From positions 117,558 to 170,073 of the forward strand of contig NOWV01000171.1 of the NCBI GenBank assembly GCA_003344405.1: DNA of 52,516 nt, given 5' to 3'. Under the pieces are notes generated by a model, which saw nothing but the letters and a program-made list of their open reading frames with translations, ran no database searches and was not told the DNA's origin. Both the position numbers and the translations under genes were made by a program. The DNA is from Trichoplax sp. H2 (Eukaryota). Below, in pieces: positions 143 through 50,795 of the stretch; positions within the stretch are counted from its first letter, which is position 1; every line of letters begins with the position of its first letter.

Positions 143-879
143 ATGGGGACGGAAAAAGCTGATCCTGATGTAGAATTTCGTGGTGAGAAGCAGGCAGTTT
201 CTGGCTTCCACCTATCTAAATTGCAAGTCATATTAATAATTCTTCTATCGATTGGCGTAGTTGTATTTACTGGAATTTTTGCTGGAGTTATCTTGCCTAG
301 CATCAATGCTGCCCACAGTACAAGCACTCAGGCACCAACTACACAACCACCAGCAGGAACTAATAATCCAACATCGACTTCGAATCAAGGTGGCTCGACT
401 TCAACGCCACAGTCTGCCACTTCCAAGCCTTATGTTATTCCTTCACCTCAACCAACACAACCTACACCTACTTCTTCTTATGCCGCCGTTAACAAACCAC
501 GTTTGCCCACCGATATTGTACCTGTTCAATATTGGTTAACATTGGAAATTGATATGACCAATTTGAATTTTTCTGGTGACACTACCATCGAGGTTACTGT
601 TAAAAAAGAGACAAATACAATTATTCTTCATGCATCTGGATTGACTATGACTCAAGATCCTCAGGTGACTAATAATCGAAACTATGATGGCTCTACCACT
701 TACTACACGATTAGCACCAAGGGAACGTACGCACCCAATCAATATTACTACATGATGATGCAGAACAATTTAACACCAGGAACATATTATTTACGATTCC
801 GCCATACTGCTCCATTATCAACCCGCTTGGACGGATTATATAAATATCAGTATACTAGAGCGTCCACCGGAGAAAAAAT
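143..879 (+). CDS. Gene A exon 1 (N-terminal tail, signal-anchor TM, mucin-like Ser/Thr/Pro stalk, start of ectodomain)
   Basis: ATG at 143-145 is the first ATG after the in-frame stop. The donor is AT|GTAAGT at 880-885 (phase 2), the same phase as exon 1 of genes B and C. Confidence 0.8.
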
Positions 880-3800
880 GTAAGTTTTTATACTGGACTG
901 TCTACTGCAATCTCGTCTAAGGTTGCAGCACCTACAGTACTATGTATTTGTATAATATCGAGTTTGCAAAAACTTGTAAGCACTGCTTAAGTGGGATTCA
1001 GCCCAGCCCGATAGAGGTAGATTTTCTAGTCAATTACCAGAATGTGCAGTTGAAATTAAAATTGCTTGCCCTGTCAATTTCTGACATTGGACTATGGAAA
1101 TAGCAGCAAAAATGCTCCAGGGTTCGCTTTTATTTTTACTTTTTCCTACAGGTATTACAGAGTACACTGTACCGTAGGCTTGATAGTACTATACACTGTA
1201 AAGTACTGTGCATTGTACTACACCGTACCAGTCACCCACTGGGCGTCAGCGTTGGCAAGTCCGTAAACTATGACGATTGCCGCCATGGTTGAGTCGGTAC
1301 GGCAGTTCTAGTTTGCCACTAGTCGGTATACTATTCCTACATCTATATCGAGTCCTAGTCTGCGAAAGAAAAATATTTCTAGGAGTACAGTATATTAATC
1401 TTATTATTATTATTATTATTAAAATGGTATATTGCCAGGGTATCAGCCATCAATGTTGAAAATCAAATGGCAGCTTTAATATTACTGTATCGTAGAAGTT
1501 GTGAGAAATGGAATTATACTTTATATTTTGAGTCAATACATAACGTATAGTACTGTACCGTATACTATTTAACCTGAAGTGGCTATGCAATACGCTTTAC
1601 ATTACTGTCCATGTCTTGCCCCAAAATAAGCAAACCACAGCATTTTTATGAATACAAATTGCAAACTCTGAACTAGGAAATAGCATAATTAAATGCTGCA
1701 TTCCCAGTAAAATTTCCGATTGTGCTTGTTACTTTCCGCAAGCAGCATCTATAATAGTACAAATAGGCGTCAAACACTAAGCTATCATACATCCACACTA
1801 TTCCATAGTCATCGAGTCTCAAATACGTGCTACTAAAGATCATTTATTGCGCATGAAAAACAATTCAGTAAGCTAGAAATTTTCCGCAACGCAAGCTTAG
1901 GGAATCGATAGAACGACCGAGCTATACTAAAGCTTTGCAGTGCCGTAGTTGTCAGGAAGCGCAGGGCAAGAAACAGTAAAATTATTTCGAATCCTTGTTT
2001 CAAAAAAGGAGTGAAAAATTTCCATTAATCGAGCAACTGAACGTTTCGTAAAATACGGCGAAAAACGCCCTTACTTCTGTCCAATTTGTCAAGCAGTATT
2101 CAAACAGCCAAGACAAGTACGGTTCAGGATGCGCACGCTACAGTACGTTACGTCGAGGTGTTTACAGAGAACCTGAAAATTATAGTTAGCATATTCAAAG
2201 TTTTTACACACGACGGTACAGTATACAGGGCTGTATCTGATTCTTTGTAAAAAAAACAGCTACTGTAATCATCTGCCGTATGTACTAAGGTCAAATTGAT
2301 GGCTTAAAATTAGAATAAATTAATAATTAATTAGTGAATAATTTTCACTGTGCCGCAATGTTGATTTTCGATGAAAACGGCTTTGACGCCATACTGAATT
2401 GTGGGATATAGTACCGCACTTGAGCAGATCAATTGTCATCAAACAAATCAATATAGCCCATTACTGACTGACATTTAACTGCAGGCAACGCGACTCCAAA
2501 TGCACTAATGCGATAATGAATACTCGCGCCATTGACGTATTGTAGCTTTAGTTTGCTCAAAAATTCATCATTGTACAGTACAGTGTATACAGTAGTGTAA
2601 CATTTACTATACTAGTGCACACGATTGCAGCATGGACCGCAAATATTTGCTGCATCACGCCATGCCGAAAAGGCGAAAGCGTAACCGTATTGCATAGCAT
2701 ACCGTCAATAAGAAATTATGATTTTCGTGCGATGTAGCATGGAGCAGAAGAGGGTCGAAAATAAAACGTACACAGTATGCAATCCATGGATGCAATCAGT
2801 GTTTGAACAATGTGCATTCTATGAGTTATACTGCATATTTTATCTGTGAAACAAAGTCCAAACCAGCTCAATGCTAGTTTTTCCTTCTGATCATTACAAA
2901 TAATAAAACAACTAACAAGAAATACTACGTGCTAGCACGTATATGTCTGAAATATTATTAGTCCTTCAAAGTTGATCGGTTAAATTACGATAGGGTTTAT
3001 TCTTTTTTTTTTGATCGAGTATGCTTTCCAAGAAACCTTAAATTTGGCCAATTTAGGTGCCGTTGCCTAATTGAACGGATGGATAGTATACTGTAAGCTC
3101 CACATGTACACGAGGCTTGATGCTATAGTAGTTCGAAGGTGCACAATACTCAAACGGCTAATTCTCACTTCAGTCGCTTGTTAGTGAGTTGCCAACCACC
3201 TTAAATTCTTGCGGTGATGATGATACCGCAAGGCACCTTTTGTCGCTTGCAAAATGTAAATATCTGGCATACGGTAGCGTATTTTCGCTATTGGACCTGA
3301 AGACAGATCAAAACAAAAATCTTATGTTTTGCATTCTAACAGGTCGTGCTCATAATATACCTTTACAGTGACTTTACGATTCATTTAAGGTTAATTATGA
3401 ATACATTTATTGGCTATATCATCTGTCGTTTACTCGAGAATTAACAGCCATTTCCAGTTAGAACGCGCAATTTACTTCTAGATTTATGATCTTATGATGT
3501 CGATATCATTTTCTAATCATTAATTCAGATTAGAACACTCGTGTCAGCTAACGTCAAGCTAACACCCCAGAGGCAAATCTTCATTTTCACCTACTATAAA
3601 TAAAGGATAGTACATTGCAAGCAAAATATTATTTAGCTTGAAAAATGAAATAAAAGCGTCTTAAACACATAGTATATTTTAATATCATGGTAAATGCCAT
3701 AAATTACAATTAAAAATATTGCAATATGTTTTATAGACGAGCGTACTAAATTACATTCCAAATAAATTCTATTAAATTAGCAACATTGATTAGCCGGGTA

Positions 3801-6800
3801 TAAATACTAAAATAGCTAAATTTCGATTTTATTTAGATGGGGTGTTGGAAGCCAGTGTGAATCATTCGATGCTCGCAGGATTATACCGTGTTTTGATGAA
3901 CCAGCATTGAAAGCTAGATTTCAAACTACCCTTATCGTTCCTAGCAATTACACTTCCTCGTTAACTAATATGCTTTTAGTCGGTGAACAACCATTGCAAG
4001 GAAATAGAGTTCAATTAAGCCATGAAAGTAAGGAAATATTCAAACCGCCGGTTTTATTTGCTGATATATTTCAGCAATAGCGTTCGCAATACAGTACATT
4101 CCTTTAACTTATCGAATATGTTTATAATATTGCATTGAATTCTTAACAGTTAGTTATACGTAATGGTAGTTAGACTAATGGAAATATAGACAACGCCGAA
4201 ATTCTATTTTATTCTAATCTCTAATTCTTTTATTTAAAACAATTTTAGACACTGTTGTTATGTCATCTTATCTATTGGCATTCAGTATCACTGACTTTGA
4301 TCGAGTTGAAAGAGATGTCGGAGGCATTTTGGTAAAATTGGATGCTAACAACATTACGTGAATTATACATTAAATTTTAGATAGCGTATTCTTATTGCAC
4401 GATGATAAACAATAAAGAGGCTCTAACTTCATTATTATAACTAAAGATTAATTAATCAACTACAGTATAGGATCTGGGCCCGTAAAGCAATTAAAAATGA
4501 CGGCAACTATGCACTTGATGCTGCCATTAACATCACTACTTACTTTGAAAATTTGCTTGGCGTGAAATATCCAATGCGTAAGCAAGGTAATGGTTATCAA
4601 ATCAGGTTCATAATCCGGTATACCGTAGTGTAACGGGTGTTCAAAATATCTAACATTAGCTTATTTTTTGATTAGATCATGTTTCTGTTCCTAAATTTGA
4701 TTCGGGCGCTATGGAAAATTGGGGATTAATCTTATATAGAGAGGAATACTTGTCATATAGTCCATCTTATACCGATGCTAGAGAAAAAGAATTTATAGTG
4801 GCTATAATTGCTCACGAATTAGCTCACATGGTAAGTGTCTAAATCTTACTTCCTTTTGAATCCACAGTTCTTAGAAATGGTATCTAATGGAATTGCTATC
4901 GATGATTAATTTAATTTTAAATCCACTTCATTTGTTAATTAAAAATGTCTTTATAAGTTATAATCAGTTTGGATAGCTACTAAATCGTTATGATATTCCA
5001 CAATCGATAAGTAAGAGCTCGGGTAGTGAAAGTATCATGAACTATACTTACTCAAGTACCTAATACTAGAAAAGACCAGCTCTCGCAAATTTGTTTATTC
5101 TAGATGCAAACTATCGTATCTACAGTTATAATATCCAATATATTTATCTTTCTTAATAGTGTATTAGCAAACTAGTTAAACTAAATTTTAATTTAGCGAC
5201 ATTAATTGTTACTGTACGCTCTGTTAGCCTATATTTGCCTACTCGTATATGTACGTATCATGTAATGTATATTCTTTATAATTCTCACTTTAAAATTTTT
5301 AAGATACATTCAGTAGTCGATAAAATGACTTTGTCAGTATTAAAACATTCTCTATGTAATGTTTGCTTCAGGCAAATGCTTTCTGAAATTGTTTTAAACG
5401 ATCATTTTAATGGCGATATGAAACTTATCATATGAAATTTTTTCAGCCTGTTTCTATACAGCAATATCTTCATTATTATCTGAATTGAAAGCTATCGGGT
5501 ATTTCATATACCGTGCAATAGCTGAATTATTTTTACTACTATTTTATTATTTAGCTATAATTTTCGCTCGTATGTAGCTAGTTGTGAAAAGCTGATTATA
5601 AGACTTGAGTGAAGTGATACTAAGAACAGATATGAGGTTAGTTTAACTCATTTTTCATTTGTTGTAGTGGTTCGGTAACTTGGTTACTATGGTTTGGTGG
5701 AACGATTTATGGCTAAACGAAGCTTTTGCAAGTTACTTTGAATATATAGGACAGACAAACTTTGCCCCTGAAACCCTCGGCGTAAGAATAATTTTATTAA
5801 TTATAATGAAAATCATTTCTCCTGTATTTAAAGTTATTAGATATATTTTAGTAAATAACCGATAACCTAGGAATTATTTAATTAACGTCAAGTTGTCTTT
5901 TGAAATTTATAGTGGGATTCCTTTGTTGGTTATGACATGAATTCTGCACTCGTTAACGATCAAACTCCAACATCTCATCCAATTAGTCCTCCAGAACAAT
6001 ACGGTCCTTTCTTCGATAGGATTACTTACCAAAAGGTGAGGATTATCATATCTCTTCTCCCTTCAAGACCAAATATATGAATAGTTATAATTACAAATTA
6101 TTGTCTACTCCAGACAATTAATTGCGATTGTAATTGTTGTAGGGTGCTACCGTTCTTCGCATGATCGATAACTATCTTGGTCGCCAACCTTTCCTCGATG
6201 GATTAAGGGTATTGTATTATATATTACAGCATAAATATCCGAGTATACGATATGAAAAAGCAACAATATCTAAAATGTTAATAAATAAAGTTATTTTTAT
6301 CGTTCTACAGCATACTTATTTGTAGATTTTAACACTTTCGTAATTAAATAACTAATTTCAATGCTTTAATGTTTTAAAATAGAATTACTTGGTCAACTTT
6401 AACTACTCAAATGCTATTGCATCAAATCTGTTCGACCGTATGACAGAAGTATGTCTAAAGCCTATTAAGAATTGATATAACTATCTTCTAGTTAACTCTA
6501 AGAAATTAAATTCTTTTAAGACATACACACTTTTGAGTGTTATCTGCACATAATTTTACTTGGTAAAAATGCAATATTAAGATGTGTTTAATTTGTAGTT
6601 ATAATGATTCTTTCGTATTTTTCCCTAAAAGCGATATAACGGTATAAATGTTACTGAACTTATGGGTCCATGGGTATACCAAATGGGCTATCCCATTGTT
6701 ACTGTAACCCAAGATTCTGCCAACAACAGAGGAATGTTATCACAACAACGCTATCTAACCAATAAGGACTTAAATCCAAGTGTAGATCCATCAACACAAC

Positions 6801-9583
6801 CATATAGATCACCATACGGGTAACTATTATACGTTACAAATGGTGATATATTTAATTGCCTATCTAAAATTATATTATTAATTTTATGAGTTGTGTAATA
6901 ATCTGTGATTTAAATAAGTCGAAAAAATTAATACGATAGCACAAATTCTTAAAAATTAAAGAATTTTTAAACACGCTGCTAACCATTTATTGATCATACT
7001 TTTCTACCTTACCTAGCTATAAATGGAATATTCCGATCACTTGGTTTGTAGGCTCTGCACCTAGTACTATTAACAGAGGGATGTTTAATAGGACATCACG
7101 TAAGTTTTCAACTGGAAAGTACTTCCAAACGAATTGTTCTACGCGACGAAATTAATTAATTTATCTTTCTCAATTTAGAATCTATGACCGTTTCCTGGCC
7201 GCAAAACACTTGGATTAAGATTAATGCAGGAAGTATGGGTTTCTATCGTGTTAACTACCCACAATCTAATTGGGATCAATTAGCTGCTGCTTTGAATGCA
7301 AACCCTAACGTAAGTTAAACTTTAAGCACAGCCTATACACTATCCATTATAGCACTCTTCGCAGTCCTTAACTATAGTGTTTAAACATGTATGAAGATTG
7401 ATTTTACTTATAATAACTCATGTTATACGATATTGATACGCTATATCATGAATAGCAATTTACTAAGAGAGATGCTGCTGGATTAATTTTGGATTCGATG
7501 GCCTTTGCATCGTAAGTCTGTGTGTTATCATGTTGGAAAAGTAGACATAATTCCAATTACCAGTGTAATTTTAAGTAAATTTCTAGTATTTGAAGATATA
7601 AAAGTCTTGACATTTTCTCATAACAACTTAAATAATTTTATGATATTATAGGACAGGACGCTTGACATACAGCACTGCATTATCCATCACTAATTACTTA
7701 GCTAAAGAAAGTGCATACGTACCCTGGTATGTCACATGGGCAGCCTTCTTAGACTATCAACGACGTTTAGCGGCTAGACCCTCGAACCAATATTTTAGGG
7801 TAAACTTAATGACCTATAATATAATTTGCTTATGAATCGACTCCATGTACAAATTTTTGTTGATAATATTCTGGATCCAACCTTACTTTTTATGGTTATT
7901 CATTCATAACCTAATACCTTCTTAAAACATAGAACTATTACGTAAAAATCTTGAAACCACAAGTAGATGCAATTGGCTTTGTTGGAACTGGAACTCATAC
8001 TGAGAGGTTCGTAGGTGTTCTAGAACTTTCATCGATCTCATAGTCGGTCAGAATACAGTAATTTATCAATTTTCTAGATTTTAAGTAAATTTAAAGCATC
8101 ATAGCTTAGAATGAAATTGTGATGATCATCATTATCTACGAAAGCCATGACATTATACTTAGTGATTTATGGGATCTTTAATTATCACCCTCTTTCAAAC
8201 AAAATTATAGTTTCGTTGTTACCGCGGTTATAACAGATAATTTTCATTTTCTCTTAGACTACTCCGAGAAATAATCATGGATGCTGCCTGTTATCAAGGC
8301 TATGAACCATGTGTTCAAAATGCAACGGCTATGTTAAGAAATTACATGAGCAATTCCACCACCAACGCGTTAGTATGGCGTAATATTTATTTCACCAACA
8401 TGACTATCCCTTTGATAAAATAATTTTACTCCTATACATTTCTATTACTAGGGAAAATTAAATAATTTTCATATAAGTAGTAATTAATTTATTAATTTTA
8501 TATCAATTTTAGTGTTCCAACTGATCTAAAGGAAGTAGTTTACCGTTATGGTATCATGTATGGTGGTAGTGCTGAATGGGACTTCCTTTGGAGCCAATAT
8601 CATTCTTCTATAACCATCCCTGATAGAGACAAAATATTTTACGCTTTGTCTTTTTCAAGAAATCCTGCCAGCATTAGAAAGTAAGCTTGACTATATTATA
8701 ACTTTCTTCCAAGTGTTTAAATATCTTGCAAAAAATATATTAATTTAATCAAAAAGCTGTATGCAGTACCATGTGCTGCCGTTAAGAGTTTCTCTATAAG
8801 TGACTATATACTATATTTTAAACTCTATGCTCTTCGCCGATAGTACATAAAAATATGGTTGCCTATATGAAAGTAAATCTTTGTTGATAATTTAGCTGTA
8901 GTCTAATAAGGCAATCGTTTCGGCATTATAGGTTTTTAAGCTACGCTATGGATCCTACCAAGATCGATAGGGCTGATACCTACTTGGTAATGTTATACTT
9001 GGCCAGAAATCCAGTTGCTAGACCCTTCGTCTGGGATTTCTTCGTAGAAAACAAGGCTTGGTTCAAGAATAGGTAACATACGGATCTTAAGATTAATCAA
9101 ACAATCAGTTGCTTTAAAGTTTCTTAATTTTACTGAAATTTAAATTTAACTTATGCTAAAATCTAGTACATTTTGAAGGTTTATTGTATTAGCTAAGTAT
9201 ATTAACTTATTCATCAATTCTAGATATAACAACTTGAGGTATCCCGCCTATTATGCAAGCTTGTACTTTGATGATGATCATAACTATGCTCGGGTATGAT
9301 TTGTTTTAAGTTTCTTAATATTTGGTTTAATTTGAGATAAAGATGTTAATATTATTATTAGTGTAATAACGACAAGTTGGATTTTAACTGACGAACGAGT
9401 CTTAAACAATCTCTCGTTTTATTATTTGATTAGGTTGAGAAATTCTTCGCTGATAATCCAGAGAATACTTATTACACGACCAGGGTAGAAAGAAACACCT
9501 TGAACCGTATTAAAGCTAACAAGAATTGGTTAACAAATCATGAAATGCGTTTTACTAAAGCTTGTCGCGATAACAGCATGTAG
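143..9583 (+). CDS. Gene A: membrane alanyl aminopeptidase (aminopeptidase N-like, M1 family). Span is start codon to stop codon, with about 20 exons.
   Basis: Exon 1 is ORF 143-883 with an in-frame stop at 134-136 just upstream. It encodes a cytoplasmic tail, TM anchor ([25 protein letters not shown]) and S/T/P-rich stalk. Downstream exons encode [43 protein letters not shown] and GYYRVNY-type M1 motifs. The terminal exon ends ...KACRDNSM with stop TAG at 9581-9583. Confidence 0.85.
1401..1420. repeat. (TTA)n microsatellite in intron 1 of gene A
   Basis: ttattattattattattatt read directly from the sequence. Confidence 0.9.
2025..2176 (+). pseudogene. Decayed C2H2-zinc-finger-like ORF fragment within intron 1 of gene A
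   Basis: The translation [50 protein letters not shown] contains a TGEKPY-type linker (YGEKRPYF) followed by CPIC…F, but lacks the His pair. A stop codon lies immediately upstream (…TTC CAT TAA). Confidence 0.3.
3837..4027 (+). CDS. Gene A exon 2 (…[19 protein letters not shown]…)
   Basis: Acceptor is tttatttag|A. The frame continues from the phase-2 donor of exon 1. It encodes the conserved FPCFDEP-type segment homologous to exon 2 of genes B and C. Donor is GAAA|GTAAGG. Confidence 0.7.
4249..4331 (+). CDS. Gene A exon 3 (…[28 protein letters not shown])
   Basis: Acceptor is ttttag|AC and donor is TTG|GTAAAA. The frame is continuous with exon 2. It carries the YL(L/I)AF motif typical of M1 aminopeptidases. 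Confidence 0.7.
4466..4586 (+). CDS. Gene A exon 4 ([40 protein letters not shown])
   Basis: Acceptor is ctacag|T and donor is CAAG|GTAATG (phase 1). It is homologous to gene C exon [17 protein letters not shown]…YPLPKL. Confidence 0.7.
4676..4830 (+). CDS. Gene A catalytic exon: GAMEN exopeptidase motif and HEXXH zinc site (…[19 protein letters not shown]…[10 protein letters not shown])
   Basis: GAMEN is at 4705-4719 and HELAH at 4813-4827. Acceptor is attag|A and donor is ATG|GTAAGT. The same exon boundaries are found in genes B and C. Confidence 0.85.
5668..5781 (+). CDS. Gene A exon encoding [38 protein letters not shown] (second zinc-ligand Glu exon)
   Basis: Acceptor is gttgtag|T and donor is GGC|GTAAGA. 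It carries the WLNE(G/A)FA motif that is C-terminal to HEXXH in M1 peptidases. Confidence 0.8.
9434..9583 (+). CDS. Gene A terminal exon ([49 protein letters not shown])
   Basis: Acceptor is ttag|G. The C-terminus is homologous to the last exons of genes B and C, which begin (V/I)KEFF and encode an …A(I/L)E…W(R/V)… segment. Stop is TAG at 9581-9583. Confidence 0.75.
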   Translation, partial: VEKFFADNPENTYYTTRVERNTLNRIKANKNWLTNHEMRFTKACRDNSM

Positions 9584-11737: not shown

Positions 11738-11997
11738 TCATTTAATCTGTTGTTGTAACTGATTGGCAATATCATGACATCCACATTCTTGTAAATCCAT
11801 AATTAATCGGAACGGTATGGCCTTTCGGCCTGATTTCATCAACCACTGATTTAACATAAGACGAACTTTATCATCAACCGCATTTTCCATATGATCAGTA
11901 ACATTTAAATCGAACTTAGATAAACCTAGTCTTTTGGCTAATTCTGTCCATTTATTGCCAATATTTTCCATGACGCACTTGAAAAATGGTGACACGG
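11738..11997 (-). CDS. Ankyrin-like gene terminal exon: death domain
   Basis: Minus ORF 11738-11995: …WTELAKRLGLSKFDLNVTDHMENAVDDKVRLMLNQWLMKSGRKAIPFRLIMDLQECGCHDIANQL… matches the death-domain pattern (W..LA..LG.S..DI..I…LL..W..R.G..A…L…L…I). Acceptor is ttactag|CC. Stop is at 11738-11740. Confidence 0.75.
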
Positions 11998-29215: not shown

Positions 29216-30134
29216 CATTGCGTTAGCCTACCGTACACGTCTTGGATCATATCCTATTAAGGTAGTAATATGAATAATACTAATTTTAAAGTATGAGATT
29301 TTGTGCATTAAAAATAAAATTTCATATATGCTGTATAAGCAATTTTTTTTTCCAAGCCATATACAGCATGACTGCTTTGGGCAATTTGCCACTTCATCTT
29401 GACGTTCATATTAAGCAGTCCATGACTGTACCTCTCACTGACACTGTCATGGACTACAATACTGTACAATGTGTAGAATTTCTTTCTGGAGCAATGAGTG
29501 CATACTTTTATTCCGATTTTTGCATCAAAATTCTCAACATTTTCAACGTGTAGCAAGAGGAAGGTCTAAATGCTATCGATTCATAACAAAAATTCAATAG
29601 AATCTATCAATTTTGGTCAGTTTTATTTCATTTTTTATTTCATTTTGAAAAATGTGAATCGAATTTCTACTCGCTGTACACTACAGTGTACAGTACAAAA
29701 GCAGTGTCGTACTGTACAGTATAGCGGGTTCTCTACAATGTACAGTACAATATACGGTGCTACAGGACGCCTGGACAAAAGCAACCTCTGGACAAGCTGT
29801 TGGTGGGTGAATATCATGACAGGTGCATCGGGCCTTTTCGATACCTGGTGTTTTCATTCATTGCATCATTCATTGTTGATCAGGAAAGCAACAACGACTA
29901 AAAATATCACTTTCAATATTACTTGATCATGATTGATTCTAATAATAGAGATCATTTTATTCATATTTCTTCATGAGTACAGTACAGTATTTTAATGAAC
30001 TGCAATTGGCTTGCTTGTATGGGTAACAATGCATTTTAGCCTAAAATTGCAGATAATAATAGGGGATTATTTATAGTTCAAGTCGGGCTTCTATCGTTAA
30101 CCAACACCTTGAAAAGGGTAGAGCCATCGACGCG

Positions 30135-30173
30135 TATATATAAGCATTGGCAATCATCGTATAGTGTCATTGG
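30135..30173 (+). promoter_or_regulatory. Putative core promoter of gene B: TATA box plus two inverted CCAAT (ATTGG) boxes
   Basis: TATATATAAG at 30135-30144 lies ~85 bp upstream of the gene B ATG. ATTGG is at 30146-30150 and 30169-30173. Confidence 0.45.
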
Positions 30174-30225
30174 CCGCCCTAAAAACGTGAATATTGTCAT
30201 AGGCCGATAGTAGAATATTGAACAA

Positions 30226-30935
30226 ATGGACGCTGGAGATTCTGATATTGAAAGTCATGACAATGATCAATTACTAGGAGATGGGTATAGTAAATCCGAT
30301 GAGAAAAGAAGACTGTTTAAAACGGCCGATTCATCCGAACAATTCCATTCGGATAGCCGTTTCGCACGCAATAAACGTTGTTTTATCTTTGGTGCAATAT
30401 TAGCTGGTGTTGTCATCTTAGCCATTTTGATCGGGATCATTGCAAAATCTAAAGCACAAATCAACGGTTGTAATCAATTGAGTAGTTCAACCCACGGCAA
30501 TGATGATAGCTCTCAATTCAATAACATTAGCGTTGACGGGAAAAAATTCCCCTATACGGCATCTCGTCTACCATTGCATTTACAGCCTATTCAATATCAA
30601 CTTTTATTAGTACCAAATATCCAAGCCATGAATTATAGCGGCCAGGTATCGATTATTATCAGAGTTAAACATCCCGTCGACTACATCGTTCTACATCAAC
30701 GACAATTATACATAGGTACTATTCACCTTGTTCACACCAGAGATCCATCAAGAAAATTGAAGGTAGTCCAAGTATTAAAAAATACCTATAACGAGTATTT
30801 GTATATTAAAGTCAACGAAACCATGGCAAGGTACAAGTTCTACACTTTGAAAATTCTATTCAGCGGTCAGATAGCTACCAATAAATTGATTGGAGTCTAT
30901 AGAAGCATATATACTACAGCAAACGGTGATAAAAG
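30226..30935 (+). CDS. Gene B exon 1
   Basis: The ATG is preceded by a TATA box ~85 bp upstream. Donor is AAAAG|GTAAGA, phase 2 (710 nt = 236 codons + 2). Confidence 0.8.
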
Positions 30936-36900: not shown

Positions 36901-39273
36901 ATACTACGTACAAATCAAAAATTAGCAACTCTAATTTTTATTCTTCCAGCATACACGCTTTAAATATAGTGTAACTTATTTAATGCTCACGGATAGGACT
37001 GGATTATTAGCTGCAAGAACGTTTCTTTCACTTACATGGTACATGGACAAAGAAAGAAACTATTTACCTGTTAAAGCCGCTTTGGATGGTATATTTTATA
37101 TACATTCTCTGCTAACCGCGGAAGCAGACAGAAAAAACGCAGAGGTGCAGATTTCATTAGACGTAGTATTTTCAGTAACTTAGGTGTTGGAATCTATTCC
37201 GTAGTGTGTTAAATTATTTAGTTACCATTATATTATTGTCAATAAAAAATATTTCAGAATGTAGCGAAAGTAATTTACTGAGTCTAATGCTAATAACTAT
37301 ATTCATAGATTACATCTACCGTTAATATTGTACATTTTAATTGCTTTATGTATTTTTAATATGCCAATATAGAAATATTTACTGAACAAAGTAAAGCCTA
37401 TCTATGAATATCTCGGTTGGCTCGATGATGGACCACCTTTCAGACAGTAAGTAAATTATTGAATTCACAGCTAGTTTTTACAATTCTTACAGACTTTTAC
37501 TCTGGATAAATCATTAGAGGTAGCTTTAGGTTGTGCTGGTCAACCCTGAAACTGTTATAAAACTTTTTAATGCCATCTTGTAGATACCTACGAACCGTAG
37601 TGATAGGTGCCTTGTGCAGCATTAACTACCCGGACGTGGTAGATAGAAGTAAAGCTCTCTTTAAGGACTGGCTTACTAATCCAAATATGTAGGTTGTTAT
37701 ATATCGCTAGAATTTATAGGAAAGCTTCTATACGTTATTCAGATTGATAAAATTCATAATGGTACAAATATTACTTATAAAAATTGTGATCTTTTAGCCT
37801 GTAATAGCTTGATACAAATTTGTTGCTAACGCTTTAAATCGGATAGAACTATTAATGGAAAAATATATCCTGTATTTCAATTTACGTAGATGATTAGTAT
37901 TTTATTTCCTCCGATTTCTCCTTTATAGTCACTAATACAGCTAAGATTGTAATTGTACCGATACTCTGTTATATTACTATTCACTAAGCGATACCTCTCC
38001 ATTAATATCGTAAAATTAGGTAAAGTAATAAGGGAGCATTTGTCTATAGTAACGTATAATTTTTCTGGAAATCTTTTTCGTTGCAAGTATTTAGAAATGA
38101 ATACGATGTTTTATTATATACTACTTTTTACGTTCGCAAGGGAGGTATCCGTTATGAAGCTGATAGTATTTTATTTCTTATTAATGCCTATACAATGTAT
38201 AGGGCTTGATTGTTTATGATTTGATGTCAATATTTATTAACATCATGAAGGATTCCATAACGTACGATGTTTTAGCAAAAGTTCAGTTATCTACTTATTT
38301 GATAATTTTTCTGTATTATAATCTTAATCATGAATATGATATTAGAGTACCAGCAAATTTGGAAAATGTAGTTCTTGACTGTGCAATTATGAATGGTGAT
38401 GAAAATGATTGGAACAAAATGTTCACCAAATACATTCAATCTCAAAATCCCATTGACAAGGCAAAATATCTAGCAACTCTTGGCGTAATCCGAGATCGAA
38501 AACTTTTGTATCAGTAAGTTTAAATGACAGATTCAAGTTCAAGCAGTTTATTTACTTATCATATAAGCAAGTAAGCGATACATATCTGCTATGTAGAATA
38601 ACTTTGATATTTGAATAAATCGTGCAGATTACTAGATTCTTCTATGAAGGAAGACATCATAGGTCTCGGCGATACCGTTAATGTCATCACCTCAGTTGCT
38701 AATAACCCATTGGGCAAATCTATGGCATGGCAGTTTACAGTGCGGCATTGGAAAGACTTAATGTCTAGGTACGTTAAAATGCTAAGGTATAATTATTTAG
38801 CAACTTGAATGTTTTTAAAGGTGATGTGGATGATCTCACTAAGTAAAATCCTGGTATAATTATTTTAATATTCCTATTTAAAAGAGAATTTGGGTACATA
38901 ATCTGAGTATCTTTATACTTTAGATATGCAGCAGCAACATTTGTTAAGGATCATTTAATAAGTGGCGTTACCAGAGGGTTTCGAACTAAAGAAGAGTTGC
39001 AAAAGGTCGTCTGAGAAAGAACGATATCTATTTTGAGCTCGTTGCGGTGCTTTTGTAATAATGTTTTTAACGCTAATAAATTGTATATATTTTTGTCCTC
39101 CTGTACAGGTAAAAGAATTTTTTCAGTGCCAAGATAGAGAATCTAAACTGCCAGTAGTTTTAGAAGCCATTGAAAAAATTGAGGCTAAAATTCATTGGAG
39201 GCAGATGCATGAAAAGGAAGTTTCTAAATGGTTTAAAATTGCTACGAAGGAAAAGTCCCAAAATCCTATTTAA
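30226..39273 (+). CDS. Gene B: membrane alanyl aminopeptidase (aminopeptidase N-like, M1 family) paralogue. Span is start codon to stop codon.
   Basis: Exon 1 is ORF 30226-30939, with TM anchor [22 protein letters not shown]. Later exons encode [56 protein letters not shown] and a C-terminal VKEFFQCQ…KSQNPI* exon (ORF 39061-39273). Confidence 0.85.
31290..31810. repeat. Tandem repeat of a ~259-bp unit, about 2 copies plus a partial copy, in intron 1 of gene B
   Basis: …ttctcattgaactgttgttgcaatcaacacgagaaaatgtcgcaattcttc…atcgctctgagattgcg…tagccaaacccagattaaaatccaatcgtagcttttattttct… at ~31356 recurs at ~31615 with about 85% identity. Confidence 0.8.
33191..33470 (+). CDS. Gene B exon 2 ([29 protein letters not shown]…[15 protein letters not shown]…)
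   Basis: Acceptor is ctgctgtag|A, completing the AG+A codon from exon 1. Donor is ATG|GTAATA. It is collinear with gene C exon 2 and gene A exons 2-3. Confidence 0.75.
33939..34093 (+). CDS. Gene B catalytic exon ([29 protein letters not shown]…VCHEIAHQ)
   Basis: Within ORF 33926-34123. Acceptor is tatag|A and donor is CAG|GTAAGC. The exon size (155 nt) and phases are identical to the catalytic exons of genes A and C. Confidence 0.85.
38923..39005 (+). CDS. Gene B penultimate exon ([28 protein letters not shown])
   Basis: Acceptor is ctttag|A and donor is AAAAG|GTCGTC. The frame links exon …WKDLMS(R) to the terminal exon VKEFF…. Confidence 0.55.
39109..39273 (+). CDS. Gene B terminal exon ([54 protein letters not shown])
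   Basis: Acceptor is ctgtacag|G. Stop is TAA at 39271-39273. It is homologous to the gene C terminal exon IKEFFSCHG…. Confidence 0.7.
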   Translation, partial: VKEFFQCQDRESKLPVVLEAIEKIEAKIHWRQMHEKEVSKWFKIATKEKSQNPI

Positions 39274-42191: not shown

Positions 42192-42199
42192 TATAATAA
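42192..42199 (+). promoter_or_regulatory. TATA-like element upstream of gene C
   Basis: TATAATAA lies 44 bp upstream of the gene C ATG (42243). The context is AT-rich, so specificity is limited. Confidence 0.3.
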
Positions 42200-42242
42200 C
42201 GAACCTAACTTTTAAATTGTTGTTCAATTTGAAGAAAAAGCG

Positions 42243-42946
42243 ATGGTCAACGAGGCAAAATATCAACTAATCCAGAGTCGAAATGACGATGATGGACCCG
42301 ATGAAGTTCCTGATATAGATAGTACCATTAAATGTTGCTGCTGCCGAATAATGAAACATCGGGCTTATTTCTATTGCTTTGTACTTACAATAGTATTACT
42401 GTTTGCTATGATTTCTTTGGTATTAGCCATTGTATCACAAAATTATATTCGGCCCTCCGTTTCCAATAATGACACATCCAAATGTACAAGTAACATCAAC
42501 TTTACACCGTCATCGAATCAAGATCCTGCCAGACTAGCTTCTACCTCTACTAATGGTGAACTATTCCCTTATAGTCACACACGATTGCCACAAACTATAT
42601 TCCCATTACATTATGAGATCTACTTGCATCCTAACTACGCTAAATTACAAACTCATGGTGAAATTAAAATTAATCTAAGCTGTGTACAAGCTACATCGTT
42701 CATTTTGATTCATGCCAAAGATATCGATATTCAATCCGTCTTGATTACCGATTTCAGGCAACATCCTATAAATGTCAGTAAAACTTTACAAAACAACTAC
42801 AACGATTTCTACTATATTCAAATGAAAGAATCTTTTCAACCTGATCAAAATTACAACCTGGAGATGACTTTTATCAGTAAGATTTCAACAGAAAAGCTGC
42901 AAGGATTTTACCGAGCAAGCTACAGGGATATGACTGGCAATAATAG
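42243..42946 (+). CDS. Gene C exon 1
   Basis: A TATA-like element lies ~45 bp upstream of the ATG. Donor is AATAG|GTTAGC (weak, phase 2; 704 nt = 234 codons + 2). Confidence 0.7.
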
Positions 42947-45900
42947 GTTAGCTGATCTATGATTTATGTTCTTTATCTGTAGCTTTACTTTTAAGAGACA
43001 ACGGTAAATTATGATATAAGTATATAACTAGTATCAGTTACAGTAAACTAAAAGTGATCGATTTTCCACGATATTGTTACAAAATGGTATCTTATAACAG
43101 TTAAAAATGTGAAATGCTAGCATTAGATATTGCCATCTTCGTTAAACCTGAAAAATTTTTATTTGACAAATCCTAATGGTTTCGATCTTGCAAATGACTT
43201 ATTATATTTTTATGGACTATGTTATTATCGATGAATAAGGCAGTCAACTTACTAAGTTTTCTAATAAATCTTCTGTTAGCTATATTACTATAGGCACAGT
43301 CGACATTAGATCAGCACAAATATTTAATTAATCCGTTATATCCAGCAAGTAAATATTCTATCTGCCAACCGTTCAAATGATATTTACCATAAATAGAAAG
43401 GATGTTTCAATAATCAGTTAAATTCACTGTATTGCCGGGAATTACACCTACGTTAGTGAAATGAAGTCATACATATATATATAAAATAAGATCAAATAAT
43501 CCATGAAATATAGACTACATTAAGTACCAATATTCATTAACATCAGTTTTCCATCTGAAATTGAGTTATCCTAGCGAAGAATTTCTACTGCCAAAGATTA
43601 AACTTACTTTTTACATCTTTATATAATCTAAGTCGAATATTCTTTCTTTGCATCATCATATGGTGACCCATGAATAAGTTGAATTACTGTACTAATACTA
43701 TATGATCTCAACTAGCATTGCTTACGAAATTCATAATTCTTAAATTCAATGTTAAATTACTGTAAAGCACTAAATAATTCATTCTTTTTCTAATCCCATA
43801 ACGAGTATATCTAAAGTTAAACTTACTCGCTGTATACTTAGTACTAAATGATATAGATATAGTTTCATGTCTATTTTAATCGATCTAAGTATAGAGCTGG
43901 ATCCTTTCTAAATTTCGAGACGTTTGTATCTACAGTTACAATAGATGCCTTTACCAACTCTGGAAAACGTGATTCTAGTGTCCCTAATACTGTTCCAGAT
44001 TAATTTAAATTTAATATTTCGAAAATCCCCCAAATTTATATTTTGATTGTGGAAATTTGGTTACTTCTATTGCTATAGGCTAATCAAAATCCAGTACTTT
44101 TTCAAAGCTGAGTAACACGTATATCGATGATAAACGATAAATTGTTTATAAGCGCTAGATAGGTTAAATCTAGTTATATTTTATTAGTTATATGCTGCCC
44201 AAATCTAGTAGTTGATCGAAATCTATAACATATGGATCTATAGTTGAATCAATAGATACAGGTAGCTCGTAATAGTCGTAACCTAAATTATGTATTAGGA
44301 TAGTCTAGGTAAATTTAGTTTATATATCGTTAAATAATCTAGATCAATTACGGCATTACATCTAAATTTTATAACGCACCACGTGGATTTCATTCCAGTC
44401 AATTTGCGAAAATAGGAACGTTTCTCTAAATGTAATTTAATTTTAAATTTATGACATATATATATATAACATAGCCACGGTTAAGCTTACTTATCGAGCT
44501 GTTGGTGTACATTATGTATTTTCTAATTCCGGTATTATTTCCAAAATTTCGTTTCATACAGCCTTAGACATATATTTCAAACTTGATGCTATATCTAAAT
44601 ACCTTCATAACCTATCTATATAGCATAAATACCGTTGAGTAAAATTACCGATACTATCCCTTGAGATAAAAATTTCTATTTGTTATTCTATCTAATTAGG
44701 TTAACGAGTTTTCTTGCAATAGTTAATACAGCCCTACATTTTATTCTTTACTGAGAAGTTAAAAAGCGGTCCTAACAAATGCAGATATCGGGAAATGTAA
44801 CTTATACTTTATGTATGGGGGTTAGCTTTCTGCAGTAATAAAAAATTGCCAACTTGCAATCTTTTACACGAGCAAATCGATGATATCCATCATAATTTTA
44901 TAGCTCCTAACTACCGATAGCATCTTATAAGACTTACTAATAGACTGAATTATCCATAGTAGCAGGCTTTAAATTAATAGATTCTTTCATAATTTATATA
45001 AAACCTTAGCATCAATAACCTATTTCAAATGATAATTAATTACTGATATTATAATTATTTGCTGGATAGGTATATGTACGTTACCCAATTTGAAGCTGCT
45101 TCTGCAAGATCTGCCTTTCCTTGTTTTGATGAACCCGGTATGAAGGTTACTGTATCTTTAACTATTGTAAGACCAAGCGGCTACCAAGCTCTATCTAACA
45201 TGCCCATTGAAGATAGTATTGTGCTAAATACGGAAAATAATATGGTAGCAGTCAAGTTTGCAAAGAGCGTGAATATGAGCACGTATTTGATAGCATTCGC
45301 AGTAGTTGATTATCATTACTTAGAAAGACGCCAAGGTTCAGTTCATGTAAGTTTTTACTATCAATCTGGTTTAATTATAGTTTACAAACGATAATGGATC
45401 ATTTTTTAATTGAATCATGTAACCAACAATAGCTTTATGTTCAATCTATTCTAACTTGTTACAAATGCTAACGATGAAAGAATGCATAAGATTATGGCAA
45501 AGCAGTAATTTGATGCTCGATTAAGAATAAAAGAACTCAATAAAATTGACCTGCATTATCTAATTTTAAGATTCGAACTTGGGCACCAGCTGATAAAATC
45601 AATTATACCGAAGTCGCTCTGAACGCTAGTGTTAAAATCTTACCATATTATCGAAAATTATTTGGTATTGCATATCCACTCCCAAAGCTAGGTTTGATCA
45701 CTTTTGTTGAATTACTCCGTATGTCTTAAATTATGACCTATCATAATTATCAACAATTAAATAAATTTGTATATTGCTGAATAAAATGCCATAGTCATAA
45801 AATAAGTACTGCGGTCAATTATATCCATTTATCAGTATAAATGCAATCATAACGTAATTAATTAATATCTTATTCATATTAATAGATTTGATAGCTGTAC

Positions 45901-48900
45901 CGGATTTTTCTGCTGGTGCTATGGAAAACTGGGGTCTAATTACTTTTCGAGAGACATCATTGCTTTATAATCCTAAAGTAGGCACAATCAGTAATTTTGA
46001 GCGTGTTGTCACTACGGTTGCACATGAACTGGCTCATCAGGTAAGATCGAGTTTTTCATCGAGCATTATTAATATGAAATGGCAATGCAATTATCGCAAA
46101 CCTCTATAGTGCTGTTTGCGAAGGACTATTTAGACATAGATATCCCATTCGAATCTCATATTTAATAAATACTTTAGAATTCACTGATTGTTTCGTTTTA
46201 TAACAAAGATAACATCATAAATTATTTTCATTTGTAAATTAGAAATTATTACATTTTCGGTTGTACTGTTCAGAAAACTGCTTGTCTCATTTGAAAGCTA
46301 TGTAATTATGACATAGTTATGAATAATAGCTGTTTCCCATACCGAGATAGTTTTACTTCTGTGGAAATGATTTATAAGCCTAATGACTAAAACATACAGT
46401 TCAAAACTTCTACCACGGCTGGTACATACAGTACTGACCGTCATGAAATTGCAGCATAATAATTTAGTACCTAATTTTTATAAAAAAGAATCTTGTGCAA
46501 ATTGATGAAATGTTGTATTATTTCATTCAGAGTAGCTATAAAGAATTCGTGCAGTATAAGCGTAAATTAAGCAATGTTTAGTATACAGCTGTTGTAAAAT
46601 CTATCCTGCAGTAACCTGAAAATTTTTTATCTTATGCCTTATTAATATCTAAATAACTTTTAGTGGTTTGGTAACCTGGTCACAATGAGATGGTGGAGTG
46701 ATTTGTGGCTGAATGAAGGCTTTGCTTCTTTTGTCGAATATTTAGGCGGCAATCTAGCTGCCCCAAGTCTTCATATTGTGAGTTTTTGCAGCATTAAATA
46801 TCTATAGACTGAAAGATTTACTAGATAATGAAGTATTTATATTGACCATTTAATGAAACTATAGCTAGAAAGCCTCTATATGAAGGAATTCATACCAGCA
46901 ATGCAATATGACAGCTACATTAATTCTCATCCGATCCTGCAAAATGTTGATAGAACAACTGAAATTGGCGCTTTGTTTGACAAAATTTCATACTCGAAGG
47001 TAAAAATTGTTTAACGTTTGGTAATCGGACAGCTAATTTTGTCTATTTTGTACAACACATACAATCTGAATTATTTATTTAATATTAGGGATGCTGTGTT
47101 TTGACAATGTTACAAGATTATTTAAATTCTACCATATTCTTTAACGGTCTTCGCAAGTACTTGATTACCTATAAATACCGAAATGCTGACAGTGATGATC
47201 TATGGAATTCGATTTCTTCGGTTTGATAAGATATTTACGCAACTACGTAATAATTAAATATTATTACTCATAAAATCCTCTAAAAGTGCAGTAAAGGCAT
47301 TCCCTAACAAACATTACCAAAGTTATTACTGATTAATTTATCGATTTGTTTCTAATTCATTTTATTTTATAACTGATCATGTGTTTCAATTTAGATATAC
47401 AGATATGATTTAAAACCTGTCATGAACAGTTGGACACATCAATCAGGATTTCCTTTGATTACAATAAAATATGATAGCTTGTATAGCAGTTATATTGTTT
47501 CTCAGGAAAGATTTTCAATGTCTGCAGGAAATCAACAATTTAATAAAACTGATAGGTAATATTTCTGTACAGTATAAAAAATCGAATATTGTCTCTTGTG
47601 AAGTACTCATTTATGCTATCTTCAAACCGTTACTATGACTAAAAATCTTTTAGCTAAAAACTAGCTTTAATTAATCTTTTCATATCATTTATAGTACCTT
47701 ATGGCACATACCGATACGATATATTACCGGAGAAGGTCTTGCAGGTAGAGTGATGATGACCGCTAAAGAAAGTAAGTGTCTTTATTCTAAAATCATCCGC
47801 TCATTTCTTAAAATATACTATAGATAATTTGACACAGGAATTAAAATGATGATTGACAGCCAAATATTTAATTACTGATTAAACCCTACAGTGGCAGTGA
47901 AATTTGTAAAAAGCCAGCATTGGATTAAAGCAAATTATTTGCAAAAGGGATACTATCGTGTCAATTACGAGCTTGAAAATTGGGTTAAATTAATAAAACA
48001 ACTCCAAGAGAATTATAATGTTAGTAATATTCGTAGCTAATAGTTTAAATTTTTGTCTATAAAAATTTCGTATTGCTTAGAATAAAATGCTTTTAATATA
48101 TTCCATCTATATTTATTTATACATTAATAATACAAGTATATAAGTAAATTGTCGATTTATGGAACGAGTGACTTGTACTATCTCAATTAGCGAATCATTT
48201 TATTAAAAAATTTTCGAATTATAAATATCTGTATCTATAAAATATAGAAATTATCAAGTCTCGATAGGACCGGGTTATTAGATGATTCCTACAATTTGAA
48301 TCGGTAATGCAGTTTTTTTTATACAACTTAAATAAATCCAAAATTGAAAGATACGAAGTTATACAGTAGTTATCATGGCCTATAGATTAATAATCTATAG
48401 GCATGTACTATAGTAGGATCTAATATAAATACCAGCAAGTTTAGGTTATTGATGCATTTTTTATCATTCCAACAGTGCTGATATTTTGGATATTACCGTA
48501 TTCCTGAACATGACAAAATATTTAAGAGTGGAAAAGGCCTACAATCCAATGTATGTTGGCTTATCCAAGATTTCAAAAATCATTTCCCTCTTTGAAAGAA
48601 ACAGTGATGATATCCTTAATGTTCAGGTATTTTCCAGCCGCTATTCCTTAAGAATTACAACAAACAATAATATGACAGTATTTAATGCTATAAGTTAATC
48701 TCATATATTTTTGATATATAATTCGTCCGCAATGTTACTATATATGCCCATGAAATGTATAAATTACTAACTAAATATGCAACATATGTTGACAGGATTC
48801 TAAAATAAATTTTAAAGGGATAGTATTACTAGAAATCTAAGCAATGTATATAGAACAAACTCTAAAACGATTTTGATATTTATAAAATTATTTTTTAGCG

Positions 48901-50795
48901 ATATCTACAGTATCTAGTTGAGCCACAGCTGCGAACACTTGGTTTAGAAGATAAAGGAACAGTGCAAGAAAGGTAGCAATTTTCTAAGATATTAATATAG
49001 AATTTGTGTCTTGAGTATCCTAAAGGTCATCATGTATTAATAAAATGAAAATAACTTCTTTCGTTTCGGTATCATCATAGAAAAGGCCGCAAGTTTATTA
49101 TAAGCGTAGCAGCAATGGCTAATGATACTAATGTTTTGCAAAACATCACAACCCGTTTTCAAGAATGGCTGCATGGAAAAAATAGGTAATGAAAAATTGC
49201 TTTCTTATGGGTGCCGAAGCACACATGATATACCATTTCTATCCAAAAACTTTAGTCAAGCTCAGAACTGCAATTAGATGTGCAATGCATATTTAATTAA
49301 CTCGAATAATAACTATTATATGCTAACTAACTATATTTATGGTATGGCATACACTAGATACAGAATTCTTAGAACTAGGCTTTTTAGTATCCGCATGTAG
49401 ACCTACAGAAATGCCAATCCGTATCATAATTTTTTTTATTCTTCCAGTCCCACACTATTTCCATTTACGTATTTTAAAGCAATCTGTAAATGGGCTTGAG
49501 AATACAGCATCATAATTTTCAGTATTTTCCGCTTCCAACTGTATAGTATTCAAACTACCGCTTACTGGCTATCCCTAATAAAATTTGCACATGTTTTTCA
49601 CTAACCTTAGAAATTTTTGGCGCTTTACAATCATGTAGAGTCCCTTTTTAAATTAACGGCCATCTATAATTAACTAGCATAATTGCTTTTTACTTACCGC
49701 AACAAAATATAACTATCTCCAAATCTTAAAATATTCCAATTTATTCAAAGATATTCCGTAGTAAATTTAATTTAGGATTAGTATCAAAATTTATAATATT
49801 ATCTCGATCTTACTATAATCTGGTCGAATTTAAGGCTTCTAGCTTTGTGCTGGCACAATTGTTTTCAATATCATTAACGTATCCATTTAAATTACCGATT
49901 TTAGTATTCCAATTGAATTAAAGGCTATTTATATAATAAATGGAATCAAAATGACTGGTAACGATGAATGGGAAAAGTTACTACGAAAATATGATGCCAC
50001 CAACGACGCTAATTTAAAACGTCTTTATATTAATGCTTTATCTGCTAGTAATAACCAATCTTTACTTAGGCGGTTAGTCCATTTAAATTATTATCGTTTA
50101 ATTTACAGTTTATTTAGTACTTATTTACCTCTCTTAACCATTTCGCATATAATTTGGTTAGACTGCTAGAATTGTCCAAAGATCATACCAAGATACCAAA
50201 ATCTGAAATTATGAACGTCGTCAGCGCTGTCAGTGGCAGTAGAGCTGGCGAAGAAATGGCATGGAATTTTGTAATAGAAAACTGGAAGTACTTCATAGAT
50301 ACGTAAGATTGCTCTAAGTGATTTAGCAAACTTTAGTCGTCTCTAGATATTGTTATATATATATTAATGATTGCGATATTATAATTATTAGATAGAGTTA
50401 TTTATTAAAATATGGGAAAAAAGGTTGATCCATTTATGATTCTTTCTTTTAGCTTCTCTGGTGATCTATTTTTAATGGCTGATTTGATTGATACAGTGAT
50501 AAGCAGCTGTCACAGCGAGACTCAACTAATGAAGGTATTAAAACTACATAATTTTAGCAAGATACAACAATCTCATTGAGACTTGCAAATAAGAAAATCC
50601 GTCCATTCTGAAATCACTATTTTTATTTTGATATGATAGATAAAAGAATTTTTTTCATGTCATGGCGATGCTGGAACTGGTGGACTTGTTGTAAACGAAG
50701 CAATAGAAAAAGTAGAGGCTATTTTCCGATGGAGAAAGAAAAACTACAATGACGCCAGGAACTGGTTTCAGTATATTCAATCAGAAATTGAATAG
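42243..50795 (+). CDS. Gene C: membrane alanyl aminopeptidase (aminopeptidase N-like, M1 family) paralogue. Span is start codon to stop codon.
   Basis: Exon 1 is ORF 42243-42962 with TM anchor [23 protein letters not shown]. Later exons encode [59 protein letters not shown] and a terminal exon ending …[10 protein letters not shown]. Confidence 0.85.
45070..45346 (+). CDS. Gene C exon 2 ([28 protein letters not shown]…[24 protein letters not shown])
   Basis: Within ORF 45059-45394. Acceptor is gctggatag|G and donor is CAT|GTAAGT. Confidence 0.75.
45886..46040 (+). CDS. Gene C catalytic exon ([33 protein letters not shown]…VAHELAHQ)
   Basis: Within ORF 45888-46109. Acceptor is aatag|A and donor is CAG|GTAAGA. 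The exon is 155 nt, as in genes A and B. Confidence 0.85.
50453..50534 (+). CDS. Gene C penultimate exon ([28 protein letters not shown])
   Basis: Acceptor is cttttag|C and donor is AAG|GTATTA. It follows exon …[14 protein letters not shown](T) at 50170-50304. Confidence 0.55.
50640..50795 (+). CDS. Gene C terminal exon ([51 protein letters not shown])
   Basis: Acceptor is gatatgatag|A. Stop is TAG at 50793-50795. AATAAA lies ~100 bp downstream. Confidence 0.7.
   Translation: MKEFFSCHGDAGTGGLVVNEAIEKVEAIFRWRKKNYNDARNWFQYIQSEIE

Follow-up and report, generated by a model that had tools for sequence, protein, structure and literature searches.

Three M1 aminopeptidase genes with an ancestral exon plan and probably ancient lineage splits in Trichoplax sp. 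H2

Among the M1 aminopeptidases two groups are the closest described relatives of the genes considered here: vertebrate aminopeptidase N (APN; ANPEP/CD13, aminopeptidase Ey) and the oxytocinase subfamily, whose human members – LNPEP/IRAP, ERAP1 and ERAP2 – lie in tandem on chromosome 5, and for which LNPEP has been proposed as progenitor (PMC7390905). In human IRAP the GAMEN motif and HEXXH(X)18E are reported to be encoded on consecutive exons, 6 and 7, and dileucine motifs in the cytoplasmic tail steer the protein through endosomes (PMC3342382). Here we describe three genes – A, B and C – from the placozoan Trichoplax sp. H2, found in a stretch of 52,516 nucleotides (contig NOWV01000171.1, positions 117,558 to 170,073; hereafter the window). 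It is very probable that the three belong to an old tandem array of M1 aminopeptidases in which A is APN-like and B and C are ERAP/IRAP-like, that they retain an ancestral exon plan, and that the splits between their lineages are ancient. Arrays of tandem M1 aminopeptidase genes are widespread among animals; our literature search found no published description of the present Trichoplax cluster.

Gene models, catalytic motifs and membrane anchors

Trichoplax sp. H2 proteins, obtained by cluster look-up, were threaded onto the window with a purpose-written dynamic-programming protein-to-genome spliced aligner. Gene A corresponds to RDD38552.1, annotated as "Aminopeptidase Ey" (991 aa, 20 coding exons); genes B and C correspond to RDD38548.1 (987 aa) and RDD38561.1 (978 aa), both annotated as "Endoplasmic reticulum aminopeptidase 2" (ERAP2) and both with 18 coding exons. 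The three genes and their exons, all from the spliced alignment, are as follows.

143-9583, + strand: gene A, putative APN-like M1 aminopeptidase (991/991 residues identical, GT-AG throughout, Pfam domains; stop included)
Gene A exons 1-10, + strand: 143-879, 3837-4027, 4249-4331, 4466-4586, 4676-4830, 5668-5781, 5913-6035, 6143-6208, 6383-6448, 6632-6819
Gene A exons 11-20, + strand: 7017-7099, 7179-7309, 7456-7511, 7652-7799, 7933-8006, 8258-8368, 8513-8680, 8932-9072, 9224-9293, 9434-9580, then TAG
30226-39273, + strand: gene B, putative ERAP/IRAP-like M1 aminopeptidase (987/987 residues identical, GT-AG throughout, Pfam domains; stop included)
Gene B exons 1-9, + strand: 30226-30935, 33191-33470, 33695-33815, 33939-34093, 34195-34308, 34500-34634, 34821-34952, 36013-36185, 36293-36369
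Gene B exons 10-18, + strand: 36556-36683, 36836-36891, 36997-37144, 37373-37446, 37584-37688, 38346-38513, 38628-38768, 38924-39005, 39109-39270, then TAA
42243-50795, + strand: gene C, putative ERAP/IRAP-like M1 aminopeptidase (978/978 residues identical, GT-AG throughout, Pfam domains; stop included)
Gene C exons 1-9, + strand: 42243-42946, 45070-45346, 45571-45691, 45886-46040, 46664-46777, 46865-46999, 47089-47220, 47395-47555, 47695-47771
Gene C exons 10-18, + strand: 47892-48019, 48248-48303, 48476-48626, 48899-48972, 49081-49185, 49905-50072, 50162-50302, 50453-50534, 50640-50792, then TAG

All 53 introns are of the GT-AG type, an in-frame stop precedes the ATG of each gene and each coding sequence ends in a stop codon, that of gene C at position 50795, where an earlier reading of the DNA from its letters alone (the sequence-only reading) had also ended the gene set. 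That reading had proposed three separate and complete same-strand genes for type II membrane M1 aminopeptidases with a conserved exon architecture, and its structural details stand up well: a first coding exon of about 0.7 kb ending in phase 2, a first intron of 2-3 kb, an exon 2 region that is split in A, and a 155-nt catalytic exon with the same phases in all three genes. The features concerned are listed here.

143-879, + strand: gene A exon 1, 737 nt, ending in phase 2; short cytoplasmic tail, predicted signal-anchor transmembrane segment, Ser/Thr/Pro-rich stalk
30226-30935, + strand: gene B exon 1, 710 nt, ending in phase 2; predicted 51-aa cytoplasmic tail and transmembrane segment
42243-42946, + strand: gene C exon 1, 704 nt, ending in phase 2; predicted tail of ~41 aa and transmembrane segment
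880-3836, + strand: gene A intron 1, 2957 nt
30936-33190, + strand: gene B intron 1, 2255 nt
42947-45069, + strand: gene C intron 1, 2123 nt
4676-4830, + strand: gene A catalytic exon (GAMEN and HELAH), 155 nt, phase 1 in, 0 out
33939-34093, + strand: gene B catalytic exon (variant SAMEN and HEIAH), 155 nt, phase 1 in, 0 out
45886-46040, + strand: gene C catalytic exon (GAMEN and HELAH), 155 nt, phase 1 in, 0 out
5668-5781, + strand: gene A exon with WFGN...WLNE, which includes the third zinc ligand (Glu), 114 nt
34195-34308, + strand: gene B exon with WFGN...WLNEGFA, 114 nt
46664-46777, + strand: gene C exon with WFGN...WLNEGFA, 114 nt
6143-6448, + strand: gene A exons 8 and 9, 66 + 66 nt; the intervening intron is common to vertebrate APN

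Since the lengths of the first exons each leave a remainder of 2 modulo 3, intron 1 is in phase 2 throughout; apart from this long intron most introns measure 80-270 nt. What A encodes in exons 2 and 3 (191 + 83 nt) is a single exon 2 in B (280 nt) and in C (277 nt), and in each gene the 155-nt exon with GAMEN (or its variant) and HEXXH is followed by the 114-nt exon with WFGN...WLNE.

The encoded proteins carry the hallmarks of MEROPS family M1, the gluzincin aminopeptidases: the zinc motif, GXMEN (as a variant in B), the domain architecture and the catalytic tyrosine. Peptidase_M1_N, Peptidase_M1 and ERAP1_C were each found in A, B and C, all far above the Pfam gathering scores. HEXXH-X18-E is complete in all three (HELAH...WLNE at aa 424 in A, HEIAH...WLNE at aa 417 in B, HELAH...WLNE at aa 414 in C), and the catalytic tyrosine is intact, with ITYQKG, ISYDKG and ISYSKG aligning to the S/A-Y-S/D-KG of California condor APN and spotted gar ERAP2. 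The exopeptidase motif is GAMEN in A and C and SAMEN in B, which keeps the MEN core and varies at the first residue; among the 274 motif-bearing homologues collected SAMEN occurs in just three, two of which are the H1 and H2 copies of B itself.

Each protein has one strongly hydrophobic segment close to its N-terminus (Kyte-Doolittle scan over 19 residues, peaks of 2.9-3.1 at residue 29 in A, 54 in B and 46 in C), preceded by basic residues, and the same scan found no other strongly hydrophobic segment elsewhere in A, B or C. This is consistent with a type II signal anchor. The predicted tail of A has about 25 residues and no sorting-like motif of the kinds seen in B and C; it is followed by a predicted membrane segment (~aa 26-51) and a Ser/Thr/Pro-rich stalk (aa 55-115) that in alignment resembles the stalk of condor APN in composition. 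In B and C the tails are longer, at 40-50 residues, and the stalk is missing: the predicted membrane segment spans ~aa 52-73 in B and ~aa 42-65 in C. The tail of B contains DNDQLL, a [DE]xxxL[LI] motif (window 30259-30276), and that of C contains YQLI (YxxPhi; 42261-42272) and a CCCC cluster beside the membrane anchor (42333-42344). Two related placozoan sequences, at 71-73% identity, keep the tyrosine motif of C in the form YHLL.

Orthologues in Trichoplax adhaerens H1 – TRIADDRAFT_63531, TRIADDRAFT_18529 and TRIADDRAFT_20075 plus EDV28939, on scaffold DS985241.1 at ~8.89-8.94 Mb – differ from the H2 proteins at few residues, and a sequence search found the first exons of gene C identical (100%) to TRIADDRAFT_20075. 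The ratio of non-synonymous to synonymous differences per site (pN/pS) between H1 and H2 is 0.18 for A, 0.09 for B (first 15 exons) and 0.13 for C, values that are compatible with purifying selection and that derive from a small number of coding differences (19 synonymous versus 10 non-synonymous in total). Three full open reading frames closed by stop codons, their GT-AG introns and the low pN/pS values led us to reject the possibility that the exons are those of pseudogenes or of a single gene. The older H1 annotation errs in two places where the window supplies correct full-length models. TRIADDRAFT_18529, the H1 model of gene B (931 aa), reads through an intron at its end and is without the last two exons, a truncation caused by a 50-N assembly gap in DS985241.1 at the 3′ end of the gene (L003 ~18600-18650, equivalent to window ~38815); gene C is broken into two models of 492 and 280 aa.

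The exon plan, phylogeny and origin of the array

A central issue is the age of the exon plan. We threaded condor APN (L004), spotted gar ERAP2 (L006) and a Nematostella homologue (L005) onto their own loci, placed all introns on one protein alignment, and counted introns as common when they fell in the same or an adjacent column with the same phase. B and C have the same 17 introns, matching in column and phase, and A possesses every one of them. Of these 17, condor APN has 16 and gar ERAP2 and Nematostella have 15 each; 14, among them the two at the borders of the 155-nt exon, occur in all three of these outside genes. Several exon sizes are repeated across phyla as well: 155, 114, 56, 148, 168 and 141 nt. 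The conserved intron-exon plan is thus the ancestral metazoan M1 gene structure, almost unchanged, 155-nt exon included, since before placozoans, cnidarians and bilaterians parted. Because the same introns occur in vertebrate and cnidarian genes, exon architecture cannot count as evidence for a local history of duplication, and the case serves as a warning that shared exon structure is a poor sign of recent duplication. Gene A has two further introns. One, which splits a 132-nt exon into 66 and 66 nt (column 596, phase 0), is common only to A and vertebrate APN and is absent from all four ERAP-like genes compared (B, C, gar ERAP2 and Nematostella); the other, between the exons of 191 and 83 nt, occurs in A alone: in this region the vertebrate and cnidarian genes carry an intron at another place, and B and C carry none.

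Evidence that A and B/C represent separate lineages comes from an unrooted neighbour-joining tree of 44 sequences (Kimura distances, trimmed alignment of 908 columns, 200 bootstraps, no outgroup). The sequence-only reading had B and C closer to each other than to A, and so they are: B and C are 35% identical and group together in 196 of 200 bootstraps, and A is 29% identical to either. It had also labelled all three "aminopeptidase-N-type", a name that suits A by its 66|66 intron and its short tail and stalk (in the tree A lies on the APN side without being sister to APN) and fails for B and C, which fall with ERAP/LNPEP. The split between {B, C, vertebrate ERAP/LNPEP} and {A clade, vertebrate APN} was recovered in every bootstrap (200/200), and B and C joined vertebrate ERAP1, ERAP2 and LNPEP in 178. 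Gene A grouped with five other Trichoplax paralogues in all 200. The Trichoplax paralogues TRIADDRAFT_63982 and TRIADDRAFT_63983, on another scaffold, are at 46-48% identity nearer to A than B or C is. Neither a clan of all Trichoplax sequences nor one of A, B and C appeared (0/200 each). A search against solved structures ranked APN first for A, ERAP1 for B and ERAP2 for C. Taken together, tree and structure ranking suggest that A belongs to an APN-like lineage and B and C to an ERAP/LNPEP (oxytocinase)-like lineage, and that these two lineages were already separate when placozoans diverged from cnidarians and bilaterians.

The duplication that gave rise to B and C, probably the more recent one according to the sequence-only reading, is also old: 35% identity and a single 53-nt blastn match between the two speak against recency. 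Among the three gene regions blastn returned only matches of 35-68 nt, at catalytic motifs, and a repeat search found only the coding stretches for FPCFDEP and AMENWG; recent duplication or gene conversion was rejected on these grounds.

The H1 assembly allowed us to read the gene neighbourhood beyond the window. Upstream of A, on the same strand and ending 4.4 kb before it, is an A-like M1 gene (L002 1-5551) with a 976-aa product and exon sizes that match the 3′ half of A; downstream, starting ~0.8 kb past the window end, is a B/C-like M1 gene, D, again on the same strand and with GGMEN (L001 20892-24713). These flanking copies are 33-36% identical to their nearest relatives. With M1 genes on both flanks, the array has at least five members in H1. 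Within the window, if a tandem array is taken to consist of adjacent, equally oriented paralogues that no unrelated gene separates, then B and C form one and A and B do not: B and C are 2.97 kb apart, in the same orientation and with no gene detected in the gap, and the 20.6 kb between A and B hold a minus-strand gene with ankyrin, ZU5-UPA and death-domain similarity. By this definition the word "tandem", as applied to all three genes by the sequence-only reading, holds for B and C alone.

Could the locus instead be the product of local, placozoan-specific birth and death, with A, B and C all APN-type paralogues, the B/C separation the latest event, and the exon plan a mark of local origin? 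The genes are linked, share a strand and have all 17 intron positions in common, B and C are mutually nearest within the window, and the M1 genes that flank the window in H1 indicate that tandem duplication did act at this locus. Yet the introns are those of vertebrate and cnidarian genes, the tree never unites A, B and C – nor the Trichoplax sequences as a whole – and always separates APN from ERAP/LNPEP, A has nearer paralogues on another scaffold, nucleotide-level similarity among the three is absent outside catalytic motifs, and an unrelated gene stands between A and B. We judge such an origin for the three genes to be very improbable. Less remote, but still improbable, is the idea that one or more of the copies – B especially – is catalytically altered or inactive and serves, for example, as a binding protein or receptor. 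It draws on the rarity of SAMEN among homologues, but is countered by the state of the remaining machinery, since B retains the motif's Glu and Asn as well as HEXXH, the distal Glu and the catalytic Tyr, and by the pN/pS of B, which is the lowest of the three (a sign of constraint and no proof of catalysis). Moreover, the substitution falls at the functionally least critical position of the motif: M1 enzymes with GGMEN and other variants of the first residue are active.

The reading we favour – an old array with an APN-like A, ERAP/IRAP-like B and C, and ancient lineage splits – has several points standing against it. The tree is purely distance-based (neighbour-joining) and outgroup-free; B and C sit on long branches, and their position as sisters to vertebrate ERAP/LNPEP could be the result of long-branch attraction; support for the deep nodes that join invertebrate ERAP-like sequences is weak (28-42%); and the A clade, although it falls to the APN side, does not form a sister group of vertebrate APN. 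Margins between structure matches are modest, at 454 bits for APN versus 442 for ERAP1 in the case of A, and 562 for ERAP2 versus 543 for APA in the case of C. The gene models are supported by the H2 annotation and by the H1 label "expressed hypothetical protein" on the 3′ part of C. The sorting motifs are only 4-6 residues long, so that chance occurrence is possible, and the change from Gly to Ser in the GAMEN of B might change or lower its activity.

The A–B interval and other features of the window

The gene between A and B is a multi-exon gene on the minus strand at ~11738-22367, for which the H1 annotation calls no gene in the interval. Its recognisable parts are as follows.

~22.3 to 15.4 kb, minus strand: about a dozen single-repeat ankyrin exons, for example 22349-22134, 20893-20771, 18396-18277 and 15814-15590
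13873-12902, minus strand: exon of 323 aa with 68 homologues, the best of them LRR-ZU5-Death (PIDD-like) proteins
11995-11738, minus strand: death-domain exon (Pfam Death, E = 2.9e-11)

For the 323-aa exon neither Pfam nor the search against solved structures gave a match, and a single-sequence structure prediction, at a pLDDT of 38, was set aside.

Two sets of repeats were seen near and within gene B. About 1 kb upstream of its start codon, at window 28596-29246, a 157-nt unit is present in four tandem copies that are 84-95% identical; the long open reading frames that run across this array on both strands are probably repeat artefacts. In intron 1 of B, at window ~31329-31807, off-diagonal blastn matches between H2 and H1 reveal two adjoining copies of ~220 nt that are ~79% identical. 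Comparison of the first introns of A, B and C found no conserved elements, no shared repeats and no open reading frame of 90 aa or more, and the weak tblastx matches between them (25-34% identity) were taken as chance. Rfam and ARAGORN detected no RNA genes in the window.

Likely roles and comparison with known aminopeptidases

If sequence is a guide to function then A, B and C would be single-pass type II membrane zinc aminopeptidases with an extracytoplasmic catalytic domain, and their most likely task would be to remove N-terminal residues from peptides on that side of the membrane. Gene A would encode a cell-surface ectopeptidase, plausibly engaged in the terminal digestion of peptides at the feeding epithelium; B and C, judging from their short tail motifs and by analogy with IRAP, may be routed through endosomal or vesicular compartments. 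Enzymatic activity, membrane topology, location in the cell and physiological substrates are predictions for each of the three. Placozoans are not known to have an MHC class I pathway, and a role in antigen trimming would thus not apply to B and C. The presence of membrane-anchored ERAP/IRAP-like enzymes in animals without MHC bears on the original role of the oxytocinase subfamily.

In the broader picture the finding is real but ordinary: the family is well known, A, B and C are already in GenBank under sensible names, and the import goes little beyond bookkeeping. A bolder view is that the array of the A-like gene, A, B, C and D is a relic of an ancestral metazoan M1 array that linked APN-type and oxytocinase-type lineages since dispersed in vertebrates, and that B, C and D preserve a membrane-anchored, tail-sorted, IRAP-like state ancestral to the soluble ERAPs. 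We hold this to be rather unlikely as a whole. It does fit the proposal of LNPEP as progenitor of the subfamily (PMC7390905), and a processing activity acts at the N-terminus of placozoan and cnidarian neuropeptide precursors for which the enzyme is yet to be identified (PMC9545775); were the relic-array view true, vesicle-resident B, C and D could be candidates for that activity.

Of the described systems vertebrate APN (MEROPS M01.001 type) is the nearest to gene A. Like APN, A has a predicted type II anchor, a tail of very few residues and a stalk rich in Ser, Thr and Pro; it also has the three M1 domains and 20 coding exons, finds its best solved-structure match in APN and, compared with condor APN, has 18 of its 19 introns in the same or an adjacent column with the same phase, the 66|66 intron included. 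The differences are no less clear: identity is only ~33-36%, A groups first with five other Trichoplax paralogues and not as a one-to-one orthologue of APN, the intron of the exon 2 region is placed differently, and A reads WLNEAFA instead of WLNEGFA.

For gene B the top match outside placozoans is the "glutamyl aminopeptidase isoform X2" of Nematostella vectensis (P0083; 38% identity), which has no M1 neighbour within 10 kb. It too has an N-terminal tail and anchor, and it shares 15 of the 17 introns of B in place and phase, with those at the flanks of the 155-nt exon among them; it departs from B in its longer tail, in an additional intron inside the region of the 114-nt exon and in the lack of an intron after that exon.

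The closest parallel to B and C, finally, is provided by LNPEP/IRAP, ERAP1 and ERAP2. The two are 35-40% identical to ERAP/IRAP-like proteins, B has SAMEN, and their tails of 40-50 residues are short beside the 109 of IRAP. They find their best solved-structure matches in ERAP1 and ERAP2 and group with the vertebrate trio (178/200); like gar ERAP2 they lack the intron that would divide the 132-nt exon; one exon carries GAMEN/HEXXH (SAMEN in B) and the next the distal Glu, an arrangement also known from human IRAP (PMC3342382); and they combine an N-terminal cytoplasmic tail and membrane anchor with a dileucine-type (B) or tyrosine-type (C) motif, as IRAP combines tail and anchor. Like the human trio, B and C stand in tandem, although in the neighbour-joining tree the placozoan duplications behind B, C and D are independent of those that produced vertebrate ERAP1, ERAP2 and LNPEP.

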